DNA of 64,000 bases from Escherichia coli. Its GTDB lineage: Bacteria; Pseudomonadota; Gammaproteobacteria; Enterobacterales; Enterobacteriaceae. Position 1 is the stretch's first letter; every line of letters begins with the position of its first letter. Under the pieces are notes generated by a model. That model searched no databases and had not been told where the DNA came from. It saw only the letters and a program-made list of their open reading frames with translations. Shown here piece after piece: positions 6,239 to 61,600 of the stretch. The translations under genes and the position numbers were made by a program. The DNA lies in the NCBI RefSeq assembly GCF_024502345.1, contig NZ_JALDNN010000001.1. The stretch is one strand, 5' to 3'.

Positions 6239-6402
6239 GGTCCAGCCAGAAGAGTAAGAGAAAGCACTATTTTACGCGTTACAGCGCTGCGACAATGACC
6301 GGAAAAGACGCCTGGCAGGCGCTATTTCTTGCCATCTGTAGGTGTCAGAAATAGGGGGGCTGTTTTTTGATTATCATTTTTATAACATTAAAGGGGTGTT
6401 TA

Positions 6403-6418
6403 TGTGATTTGTATCACA
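6403..6418. promoter_or_regulatory. CRP binding site upstream of azuC
   Basis: TGTGA-tttgta-TCACA, a perfect TGTGA-N6-TCACA. Confidence 0.7.
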
Positions 6419-6432
6419 TAAAGATTGATTTT

Positions 6433-6500: not shown

Positions 6501-6587
6501 ATGAAACTGCGCAAAATCCTGAAAAGTATGTTCAATAACTATTGCAAGACGTTCAAAGACGTACCGCCAGGCAATATGTTCCGATAA
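6501..6587 (+). CDS. azuC: Small protein AzuC (28 aa), within the AzuCR dual-function RNA locus
   Basis: atgaaactgcgcaaaatcctg... encodes MKLRKILKSMFNNYCKTFKDVPPGNMFR; below the 60-aa track cutoff; terminator follows immediately. Confidence 0.85.
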   Translation: MKLRKILKSMFNNYCKTFKDVPPGNMFR

Positions 6588-6589
6588 CA

Positions 6590-6616
6590 AAAAACCTGCT
6601 CCGGCAGGTTTTTTTG
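6590..6616 (+). terminator. Rho-independent terminator of azuC
   Basis: cctgctccggcagg hairpin followed by a T7 run. Confidence 0.85.
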
Positions 6617-7031: not shown

Positions 7032-7535
7032 TCAATGCAGCTGATGCGACACGACATTCAGAACATGTTGGTCGGTCTGCACTGGGCACATACCAGCAAG
7101 TTTCGCACTGCGCACTTCATCAAGAATGATTTGCAGCAACAGACCATCATGCTGCTGTTCTTTTTCCAGATCGCGCAGGAAATTGACGGTTGAATCATCA
7201 TTCAGTTCTTTCGCTTCATCGGCTAACTGTGCCAACGTACTAGAACGTTGCTCGTATTCTTCCATCGTTTTTTGGAACAGTTCTTCCAGAGAGTTCAGTT
7301 TTTCACCGGGAACATCAATGGCTTTAACGATGGGGGTAGCGCCGACACTCTTCATAAAGTTAAACATGCGCATCATTTGGGTCACATTACTCTGTGCCTG
7401 GGCGCGAAGGAAAGTGGCGGTGCCGTTCAGACTCTGTTCAGAACACCAGTTACTCAGGTGAAGGTAGAGATTGGATGCGTAAAACTCGCGGTTAATTTGA
7501 GAGTTGAGTTTGAGAAGCATTCCAGCGGTTGCCAT
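7032..7535 (-). CDS. ftnB: Ferritin-like protein FtnB
   Basis: 167 aa matching K-12 FtnB. Confidence 0.92.
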
Positions 7536-8331
7536 ACCTAATATCCTTATATCCAGAAGTGGAGAGGTGCAAGATAAATCAAAACACCATAATTACTGTT
7601 TGCAGAATAATTCCTTTCTGCCGGTCCGAAATGTGATCGTGGAGTCAATTCTGACGATGATCTGAAATAAGAATAACGTCTGAACGGGTATAAGAAAATG
7701 CTTAAATCATCAAGTTTATATATTTTTACATTTCATTGATGAAATCAATGTAACTGCAATGAATTTTAATGATAGTGCTTTTTGTATCTTGTTGATATTA
7801 ATCAATTAATTTGAATTCATGATGAAGTGATGATTTTATAAAACGTTTTTTCATTTTTGCGAGATGGCTCTCATTATACGTGTTCTGTTAATTAATGAGC
7901 ACAGTGATAATTAATGACGAAATGAATGACGTGCATTTTCCACATCTTTGAGTTGCGGTTATTACACCATTTCAAAAACTCAACGCCAGGTAATGCGGCC
8001 TATTGACTGGTTAAAAAGAAGACATCCCGCATGGGTACCAAAGACAACAAGGATTTCCAGGCTAATCTTATGGATTAATCTGCTGTGCATTCGACAATTT
8101 GTCTGACAAATTGGCTTTCCCTTATGTCTTTTCCCGCTAAATTTATGCACGTTCTCACTGTAATTCTGCGATGTGATATTGCTCTCCTATGGAGAATTAA
8201 TTTCTCGCTAAAACTATGTCAACACGGTCACTTATCTTTTAGTTAAAAGGTAATGCTTTGTTTTCCGATTAATTTAACGAATGTCATTCGTTTTTGCCCT
8301 ACACAAAACGACACTAAAGCTGGAGAGAACC

Positions 8332-9321
8332 ATGCACAAATTTACTAAAGCCCTGGCAGCCATTGGTCTGGCAGCTGTTATGTCACAATCCGCTATGGCG
8401 GAGAACCTGAAGCTCGGTTTTCTGGTGAAGCAACCGGAAGAGCCGTGGTTCCAGACCGAATGGAAGTTTGCCGATAAAGCCGGGAAGGATTTAGGGTTTG
8501 AGGTTATTAAGATTGCCGTGCCGGATGGCGAAAAAACATTGAACGCGATCGACAGCCTGGCTGCCAGTGGCGCAAAAGGTTTCGTTATTTGTACTCCGGA
8601 CCCCAAACTCGGCTCTGCCATCGTCGCGAAAGCGCGTGGCTACGATATGAAAGTCATTGCCGTGGATGACCAGTTTGTTAACGCCAAAGGTAAGCCAATG
8701 GATACCGTTCCTCTGGTGATGATGGCGGCGACTAAAATTGGCGAACGTCAGGGCCAGGAACTGTATAAAGAGATGCAGAAACGTGGCTGGGATGTCAAAG
8801 AAAGCGCGGTGATGGCGATTACCGCCAACGAACTGGATACCGCCCGCCGCCGTACAACGGGTTCTATGGACGCACTGAAAGCTGCAGGATTCCCGGAAAA
8901 ACAAATTTATCAGGTACCTACCAAATCTAACGACATCCCGGGGGCATTTGACGCTGCCAACTCAATGCTGGTTCAACATCCGGAAGTTAAACATTGGCTG
9001 ATCGTCGGTATGAACGACAGCACCGTGCTGGGTGGCGTACGCGCGACGGAAGGTCAGGGCTTTAAAGCTGCCGATATCATCGGCATTGGCATTAACGGTG
9101 TGGATGCGGTGAGCGAACTGTCTAAAGCACAGGCAACCGGCTTCTACGGTTCCCTGCTGCCAAGCCCGGACGTACATGGCTATAAATCCAGCGAAATGCT
9201 TTACAACTGGGTAGCAAAAGACGTTGAACCGCCAAAATTTACCGAAGTTACCGACGTGGTGCTGATCACTCGTGACAACTTTAAAGAAGAACTGGAGAAA
9301 AAAGGTTTAGGCGGTAAGTAA
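8332..9321 (+). CDS. araF: L-arabinose ABC transporter periplasmic binding protein
   Basis: Track ORF 346 aa; internal start MHKFTKALAAIG with SD ggagag gives 329-aa AraF. Confidence 0.95.
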   Translation: MHKFTKALAAIGLAAVMSQSAMAENLKLGFLVKQPEEPWFQTEWKFADKAGKDLGFEVIKIAVPDGEKTLNAIDSLAASGAKGFVICTPDPKLGSAIVAKARGYDMKVIAVDDQFVNAKGKPMDTVPLVMMAATKIGERQGQELYKEMQKRGWDVKESAVMAITANELDTARRRTTGSMDALKAAGFPEKQIYQVPTKSNDIPGAFDAANSMLVQHPEVKHWLIVGMNDSTVLGGVRATEGQGFKAADIIGIGINGVDAVSELSKAQATGFYGSLLPSPDVHGYKSSEMLYNWVAKDVEPPKFTEVTDVVLITRDNFKEELEKKGLGGK

Positions 9322-9390
9322 TTTGCCGGAAAAATTCCCCTCTGCATGATGCAGAGGGGGTGTGAACGACCAGTGATTCACGGAGACGTT

Positions 9391-61565: not shown

Positions 61566-61573
61566 AAGTCAAA

Positions 61574-61600
61574 ATGCCCGATCGAGGATCGGGCATTTTT
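61574..61600. terminator. Bidirectional rho-independent terminator between convergent eda and purT
   Basis: atgcccgatc-gag-gatcgggcat hairpin flanked by A-run and T-run. Confidence 0.8.

Follow-up and report, generated by a model that had tools for sequence, protein, structure and literature searches.

The ftnB-araF intergenic region carries a 19-bp palindrome between two pairs of AraC-type half-sites

Since the 1980s, the araFGH promoter of Escherichia coli has served as a textbook case of control by AraC and CRP, and models of it usually include just these two inputs. Here we describe a palindromic element in its control region, found in a 64-kb stretch of E. coli DNA (64,000 nucleotides of contig NZ_JALDNN010000001.1; hereafter, the window), and propose it as a candidate operator for YieP, a little-studied regulator of the GntR/FadR family. 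The element lies in the intergenic region (positions 7536-8331, 797 bp, 35% GC) between ftnB, the upstream neighbour on the minus strand (7032-7535), and araF, which opens the araFGH operon and whose coding sequence occupies 8332-9321 on the plus strand (RefSeq annotation of identical DNA; ATG at 8332). This intergenic region was found in 5417 of 5426 complete E. coli genomes, and the palindrome is present as an identical 19-mer in strain MG1655 (1,986,347-1,986,365).

At 8095-8113, the sequence reads CAATTTGTCTGACAAATTG, i.e., CAATTTGTC-T-GACAAATTG. Apart from its centre base, which is unpaired, this sequence equals its reverse complement. It is thus a perfect 9+1+9 palindrome, and it cannot be extended, as position 8094 is A and position 8114 is G (the palindrome, its core, the spacers around it and the CRP-like site discussed below are given without strand). 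An earlier note on this DNA had described the palindrome as perfect over 19 bp and placed it in the araFGH control region, about 220 nt upstream of araF; direct inspection of the sequence bears this out, its end lying 218 nt and its centre 228 nt upstream of the araF ATG. The note had also judged the neighbouring ttatggattaatc (8068-8080) to be AraC-like and the palindrome to be unlike a CRP site. Both judgements held: the former belongs to a half-site (8069-8085) that agrees with the AraC consensus at 9/10 positions, and the palindrome halves are 1 bp apart rather than 6. Where the note stopped short was in leaving the operator unassigned, though the inner 15 bp match the YieP motif at 14 of 15 positions, as detailed below. 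Chance alone would give ~0.04 palindromes in the 797-bp intergenic region, counting arms of 9 or longer and loops of 0-4, and ~0.27 across the 64-kb window when the loop is set to exactly 1.

We scanned 8000-8260 in both orientations for the AraC half-site consensus TAGCn7TCCATA, scoring each position out of 10. Four strong AraC-type half-sites were found, all oriented opposite to araF transcription (minus strand) and spaced 21 bp within each pair. The distal pair (8048-8085) is a direct repeat made up of CAAGGATTTCCAGGCTA (8048-8064), which scores 8/10 as the reverse complement of the consensus, and TATGGATTAATCTGCTG (8069-8085), which scores 9/10 and contains ttatggattaatc. This pair is conserved across genera and is probably the footprinted site that Hendrickson et al. 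1990/1992 reportedly call araFG2. The proximal pair (8123-8160) consists of TATGTCTTTTCCCGCTA (8123-8139, 8/10) and TATGCACGTTCTCACTG (8144-8160, 7/10) and is presumably araFG1, on which control by arabinose depends. High scores are rare, with just 38 and 6 of 128,000 window positions scoring 8 and 9, respectively. The gap between the two pairs spans 37 bp (8086-8122), and its centre, position 8104, is also the centre of the palindrome.

Further downstream, TATGGAGAATTAATTTC (8188-8204, 7/10) makes a fifth AraC-like half-site, in which CTCyTATGGA is invariant across genera. It overlaps both the -35 region and the right half of the CRP-like site. Because of this half-site, the published AraC site names are not assignable with certainty.

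A 15-bp core is conserved both in sequence and in register

Conservation was examined over 80 araF loci, one per species, from the Enterobacteriaceae, and information content was computed over the 65 species whose geometry has no indels. The inner 15 bp of the palindrome, the core ATTTGTCnGACAAAT (8097-8111), hold 1.46 bits per column, versus 0.42 in the left spacer (8086-8096) and 0.58 in the right spacer (8112-8122), both of which vary in sequence and are fixed in length. The neighbouring AraC-type, AraC-type and CRP-type blocks hold 1.22, 1.51 (the proximal pair) and 1.64 bits per column, respectively. Within the palindrome, the unpaired centre base (8104) holds 0.12 bits, a lack of constraint expected for a site bound by a dimer, and the two outermost bases of each arm (8095, 8096, 8112 and 8113) hold 0.3-0.5 bits. 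The perfection of the palindrome over 19 bp is a lineage-specific extension; constraint acts on the inner 15 bp, which form the functional unit.

An alignment of 22 genera resolved this conservation base by base. TTGT (8099-8102), A8106 and A8108 are invariant, and C8103, G8105, C8107 and A8109 are nearly so (C8107 and A8109 at at least 90%), with the sequence flanking the core on both sides being hypervariable. The same division is seen among E. coli strains, in which the core is constant and C8095, A8096, the centre base T8104, T8112 and G8113 are polymorphic; other strains carry TAATTTGTCTGACAAATTC, TGATTTGTCTGACAAATAA or A as the centre base.

The position of the core is conserved as well. 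Most of the 80 loci have a related element equally far from the araF start. The core centre is 19 bp away from the end of the distal AraC pair in 65 of the 80 species and from the start of the proximal pair in 67, and the inner AraC half-sites are 54 bp apart in 66. Spacers of fixed length and free sequence are the signature of elements that are kept in register. Translated into helical phase, 54 bp corresponds to ~5.1 turns, placing the two inner half-sites on the same face of the helix, and the 27 bp that separate the core centre from the centre of each inner half-site correspond to ~2.6 turns, placing the core on the opposite face. The site lies between the AraC half-site pairs and not inside one, and phylogenetic footprinting speaks for a probable function.

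Some lineages depart from this arrangement. In Citrobacter sp. FP75, Citrobacter sp. Res13-Sevr-PEB04-36 and C. gillenii, the stretch ~-245 to -215 from the araF ATG holds unrelated sequence, CCCATCGAAAAAAA or CCCACCAAAAAAA, in place of the core, with the flanking AraC half-sites and the total spacing (53 bp) retained, which looks like a lineage-specific loss of a third input. The araF control region of Pantoea (~-260 to -180 from the ATG) has a different architecture, with a TTGTGATCCATTG element where the YieP-type core would sit and TGTGAT motifs 73 bp apart, in two copies in one locus and in three copies in two loci.

The core matches the operator motif of YieP

YieP was taken up as a candidate regulator given the sequence AATTGTATGATGAAT upstream of yohJ and the repression of yohJK by YieP. 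The motif of this protein, atTTGTaTGAcaAAT (capitals, more than 1 bit), was derived by chromatin immunoprecipitation with exonuclease digestion (ChIP-exo; Nguyen-Vo et al. 2020, PMC7642389). The araF core ATTTGTCTGACAAAT agrees with it at 14/15 positions, including 10/10 high-information positions, and the lone mismatch falls on a low-information position, where it gives the araF site perfect symmetry. Chance would yield ~0.001 matches of 14/15 or better in the intergenic region, and 40 shuffles of the 64-kb window yielded none; in the unshuffled window, the araF site is the sole match of at least 13/15.

The same scan recovered sites at genes already tied to YieP. It scored ATTTGTATGACAAAT at ykgE 15/15, a YieP site identified by Reg-Seq, mass spectrometry and a knockout (PMC7567609), and ATTTGTATGATAAAT at rydC, a gene repressed by YieP (PMC11340327), 14/15. 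The two sdaC sites, AATTGTATGACATAT and ATTCATATAACAAAT, which were validated by electrophoretic mobility shift assay, ChIP-exo and a reporter (PMC8282354), scored 13/15 and 12/15, respectively, and AATTGTATGATGAAT at yohJ scored 12/15. In a published genome-wide prediction with Find Individual Motif Occurrences (FIMO), the 13/15 sdaC site tied for tenth (PMC8282354); the araF match being stronger, it should rank near the top genome-wide.

The rydC match can also be placed on the map. It lies at 1,491,521-1,491,535 of MG1655, centred ~22 bp upstream of the annotated rydC 5' end. The paper that showed repression of rydC by YieP placed the gene outside the ChIP-exo regulon and, so far as we found, gave no site for it (PMC11340327); judging by its sequence, ATTTGTATGATAAAT is likely a YieP operator.

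The domain composition of YieP agrees with the form of the core. YieP has a GntR and an FCD domain, which assign it to a family that recognises TnGTnnnACnA, and the central 11 bp of the core, TTGTCTGACAA, fit the operator of the GntR/FadR subfamily, being two-fold symmetric with an unconstrained centre. yieP is reported to be conserved in Escherichia, Klebsiella, Citrobacter koseri, Leclercia and Phytobacter, among others (PMC11340327, from which the distribution of yieP is taken), and the araF site is likewise conserved in these taxa.

Across species, a core-equivalent site scoring at least 11/15 against the YieP motif was present in 73 of the 80 orthologous loci, including loci where the palindrome has decayed. 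Siccibacter, Franconibacter, Cedecea, Mangrovibacter, Buttiauxella and some others have ATTCATCATACATAT or intermediates, e.g., ATTTGTCATACATAT, at the core position. These forms are poor palindromes, but ATTCATCATACATAT is the reverse complement of ATATGTATGATGAAT, which scores 12/15 and is nearly the yohJ site. In other Escherichia lineages, the site reads ATTTGTCATACAATT, one base off sdaC site 2. That variants without palindromic symmetry stay YieP-like points to recognition by a protein rather than to a DNA hairpin.

Compared with the known YieP operators, i.e., ykgE ATTTGTATGACAAAT, rydC ATTTGTATGATAAAT, yohJ AATTGTATGATGAAT and sdaC AATTGTATGACATAT, the araF site ATTTGTCTGACAAAT has the 15-bp motif in common, and all five are 7-1-7 dyads, perfect or imperfect, and rich in AT. 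Unlike the others, the araF site carries the C/G form of the motif and is fully symmetric. It also differs in position: the ykgE, rydC and yohJ sites overlap or follow the promoter, where YieP represses, whereas the predicted araF site is flanked by AraC sites and lies well upstream (~-116 or -162, depending on the transcription start). In this respect, it resembles sdaC, which has far-upstream YieP activating sites (PMC8282354). YieP operators are a known kind of element, and what would be new is araF as a candidate member.

Taken together, the conservation and the motif match suggest that the 15-bp core ATTTGTCtGACAAAT (8097-8111) is probably an operator for a YieP dimer that modulates the AraC/CRP-dependent activation of araFGH. 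We infer, from sequence comparison, that YieP would occupy the site in vivo and exert a regulatory effect at araF. A weak hint of a missing input comes from a model with AraC and CRP only, whose predictions for ParaFGH expression during the diauxic shift were about twofold too low (PMC2893085).

Several points weigh against this assignment. Three Citrobacter species carry unrelated sequence at the core position, indicating that the element is dispensable in some lineages. FIMO predicted 1,025 YieP sites, compared with ~23-33 ChIP-exo peaks, so that most motif matches are unbound (PMC8282354). araF goes unmentioned in the main texts and accessible supplements of the YieP papers, the ChIP-exo site tables lying outside this search; if araF is among the ChIP-exo peaks behind the motif, the match may not be fully independent and the link may already be on record. 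Along the same lines, we found no paper that links YieP with araF, a prior listing in the ChIP-exo site tables being possible. Furthermore, Hendrickson et al. 1992 reportedly saw a slight promoter effect upon deletion of the upstream AraC site (araFG2), by which measure the effect of YieP may be small or condition-specific. The published transcriptomes bear on this point too. RNA sequencing of yieP deletion strains was done in glucose, glycerol or lysogeny broth, media without arabinose, in which araFGH was therefore uninduced. The lack of any reported YieP effect at araFGH may in part reflect these arabinose-free conditions.

Other readings of the core

The core could instead be the operator of another GntR/FadR-family regulator, such as DgoR, FadR, PdhR or an uncharacterised paralogue. 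FadR and PdhR boxes have a 5-1-5 geometry like that of the core, from which they differ by one base per half. More broadly, the FadR, PdhR and DgoR boxes are 5-1-5 or 6-1-6 dyads of the form TnGTnnnACnA, bound by a winged-helix dimer, and the core fits this family-wide pattern and has their geometry. The E. coli DgoR operators at dgoR, TTGTAGTACAA and TTGTAGTACCA, are of this type, and the TTGT and ACAA of the DgoR box (TTGTAsTACAA) recur in the araF core. A further likeness comes from Pseudomonas putida W619, where the footprinted core of the operator of LhgR, a GntR/FadR-family sensor of L-2-hydroxyglutarate, is TTGTCTGACAA, identical to araF 8099-8109 (PMC8206213). Organism, regulator and ligand all differ between the two systems, and the identity shows just that this 11-mer is a bona fide FadR-subfamily operator core.

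The details of the core speak for YieP over its relatives. The flanks ATTTGT and ACAAAT are conserved, and the YieP match spans all 15 positions rather than the family core alone. FadR and PdhR need GGT/ACC, whereas the araF core has an invariant TGT/ACA; G, which these two proteins require at T8100, does not occur there in any of ~65 species. Next to the centre, the araF core has C and G, nearly invariant, in place of the A and T of DgoR operators. Moreover, a scan of the MG1655 promoters of dgoR, glaR/csiR, lgoR, rspR/rspA, mcbR/mcbA, glcC and yieP for TTGTCnGACAA-like sites returned just the known DgoR boxes, a similar motif being absent from the glaR, lgoR, rspR, mcbR and glcC promoters. 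We also looked for a regulator gene next to the operon; the upstream genes in other genera are ftnB and one resembling DJ-1/PfpI, and no transcription factor was found there. On balance, we regard a regulator of this family other than YieP as improbable.

One candidate, TTATCAGACAA, surfaced upstream of yieP itself and was taken as a chance occurrence, since by sequence reading, not by annotation, it lies in the rrnC leader.

A somewhat less probable reading still holds that the element belongs to the AraC/CRP machinery, either as an extra contact for AraC or CRP or as a sequence-dependent bend or spacer through which the two AraC sites communicate, with no third protein. That the core sits exactly midway between the AraC half-site pairs, with invariant spacing, speaks in its favour, as does the tolerance of AraC for varied half-site arrangements, which Carra and Schleif 1993 are said to have described. 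The sequence of the core argues otherwise. Against the AraC consensus, in either orientation, 17-mers overlapping 8095-8113 score 6/10 at most (8080-8096), below the 7-9 of the flanking half-sites. CRP recognises TGTGA-N6-TCACA, a 22-bp dyad with which a 5-1-5 geometry is incompatible, and no such motif was found in the control regions of araBAD/araC, araE and xylAF. Finally, an element serving purely as a spacer or bend would have no need of two-fold symmetry in specific bases, matched to the motif of another regulator.

Other DNA-binding proteins were compared by eye, and the consensus sites of CRP, FNR, Fis, IHF, LexA, PhoB and sigma-54, as well as Lrp-type sites, misfit in geometry or key bases. 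No relevant Rfam match and no promoter-like site was found at the palindrome, and the only two terminator-like matches in 7900-8340 (7928-7946 and 8183-8195) lie away from it.

That the palindrome arose by chance in AT-rich DNA, or serves as a DNA or RNA hairpin that binds no protein, is highly improbable: the region does have 35% GC and the outer two base pairs of each arm are unconstrained, but the chance expectation is ~0.04, the core keeps its position in ~65 species amid hypervariable spacers, a hairpin is impossible with a 1-nt loop and variants keep the motif though arm complementarity is lost, so that the conservation pattern in effect refutes this reading.

Position of the YieP-type core relative to CRP and the core promoter

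Downstream of the proximal AraC pair lies the CRP-like site TGTGAtattgcTCTCC (8172-8187), whose TGTGAT (8172-8177) is invariant across genera. At ParaFGH, the CRP site is described as overlapping the -35 region, with AraC bound upstream of CRP (PMC2893085). Going by conservation, 8172-8187, and not the Escherichia-only sequence at 8217-8232, is probably the araFGH CRP site. The conserved bases that follow, G8207, T8209, A8210, A8213 and T8215 (invariant in 22 genera), include a probable extended -10 element on the plus strand (8207-8214), made up of the invariant G8207 and then TAAAAC. Hendrickson et al. 1992 reportedly described a promoter lacking a -35, with a weak -10 directly preceded by an essential G and with two changes needed for consensus, and reportedly found araFG1 to be essential. 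Transcription would likely start near 8219-8221, so that the palindrome centre would fall near -116; were transcription to begin near 8266 instead, using the CRP-like sequence at 8217-8232, the palindrome would lie near -162. Under either start, the palindrome is upstream of the promoter-proximal activator sites.

The second CRP-like site, TGTCAacacggTCACT (8217-8232, 8/10), is found in Escherichia only and is absent from other genera. It may be either a lineage-specific second CRP input or promoter, or else the true CRP site if the start lies near 8266.

A model for YieP at araFGH

In the arrangement that we propose, a YieP dimer would bind the core, with an AraC dimer site on either side and the CRP site and core promoter further downstream. 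The operator is too far upstream for a direct block of RNA polymerase or simple promoter occlusion, excluding these modes; occlusion appears to be the way in which YieP represses ykgE, rydC and yohJ. The base-pair-exact distance to both AraC sites, together with spacers that are free in sequence, suggests instead that YieP would take part in a stereospecific AraC-YieP-AraC-CRP assembly. A bend induced by YieP could draw the two AraC dimers together or push them apart. By analogy with sdaC and its far-upstream activating sites, we lean towards modulation by YieP from upstream, which could be activation or inhibition. Through such an assembly, YieP could tune the AraC/CRP-dependent induction of the high-affinity arabinose transporter following its own signal. 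The expression of yieP, which is repressed by the anaerobic small RNA FnrS, may also set the tuning of araFGH.

Precedents for such a geometry exist in other sugar systems. At araBAD, CRP lies between araO1 and araI, and in the GalR loop, HU sits at the apex; helical phase matters in these systems. In both, a second protein is placed between two sites for the same sugar regulator, as proposed here for araF. The araF arrangement differs in that the intervening factor would be a ligand-responsive GntR-type protein, and in that the AraC sites are just 75 bp apart, centre to centre.

A bolder version of this model, which we consider doubtful as a whole, would make araFGH a conserved, hitherto unreported member of the YieP regulon, in which a fixed AraC-YieP-AraC-CRP complex, with YieP on the opposite helix face, gates high-affinity arabinose uptake by the YieP ligand and by oxygen (via FnrS and yieP). 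On this version, one of the oldest model promoters would display a new, stereospecific mode of co-regulation.

If the assignment is correct, a site for a third regulator is held in register between the AraC sites, and the AraC/CRP model of this promoter is incomplete. YieP, in turn, would gain a well-characterised and easily assayed promoter for finding its signal and for studying how a GntR-type dimer works with or against AraC. Should YieP prove irrelevant here, the locus would still be a clean case of a motif match and a phylogenetic footprint assigning an orphan palindrome.

Other features of the window

Upstream of the AraC sites, the interval between ftnB and the araF control region contains, in other Enterobacteriaceae, a gene of 186-195 amino acids, DJ-1/PfpI-like by eye, with a terminator hairpin after it. 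E. coli is without this gene and has ~500 bp of non-coding DNA with 35% GC there instead (7536-8040). On the other side, between the probable transcription start and the araF Shine-Dalgarno sequence, two blocks are conserved, gcTAATGCcTTGTTTT (8249-8264) and CCCTACAtAAAA (8299-8310). These could be targets of post-transcriptional control, if the 5' untranslated region is ~110 nt long. After the araF stop (9321) and before the annotated araG start (~9391), a GC-rich hairpin with 11-bp arms, CCCCTCTGCATGATGCAGAGGGG (9337-9359), may act as an intercistronic stabiliser or attenuator, lifting the level of AraF above those of AraG and AraH.

Further away, a perfect 10+4+10 palindrome, TTTATGTGATTTGTATCACATAAA (6399-6422), lies between yecR and azuC and forms a consensus CRP site (TGTGA-N6-TCACA). 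It is located ~80-100 bp upstream of azuC (~6501-6587, annotation transferred), and probably controls azuC/azuR. Finally, two terminator-like palindromes have A and T runs on both sides, AAAAAACCTGCTCCGGCAGGTTTTTT (6589-6614), directly after azuC, and AAAATGCCCGATCGAGGATCGGGCATTTT (61571-61599); both look like bidirectional intrinsic terminators.

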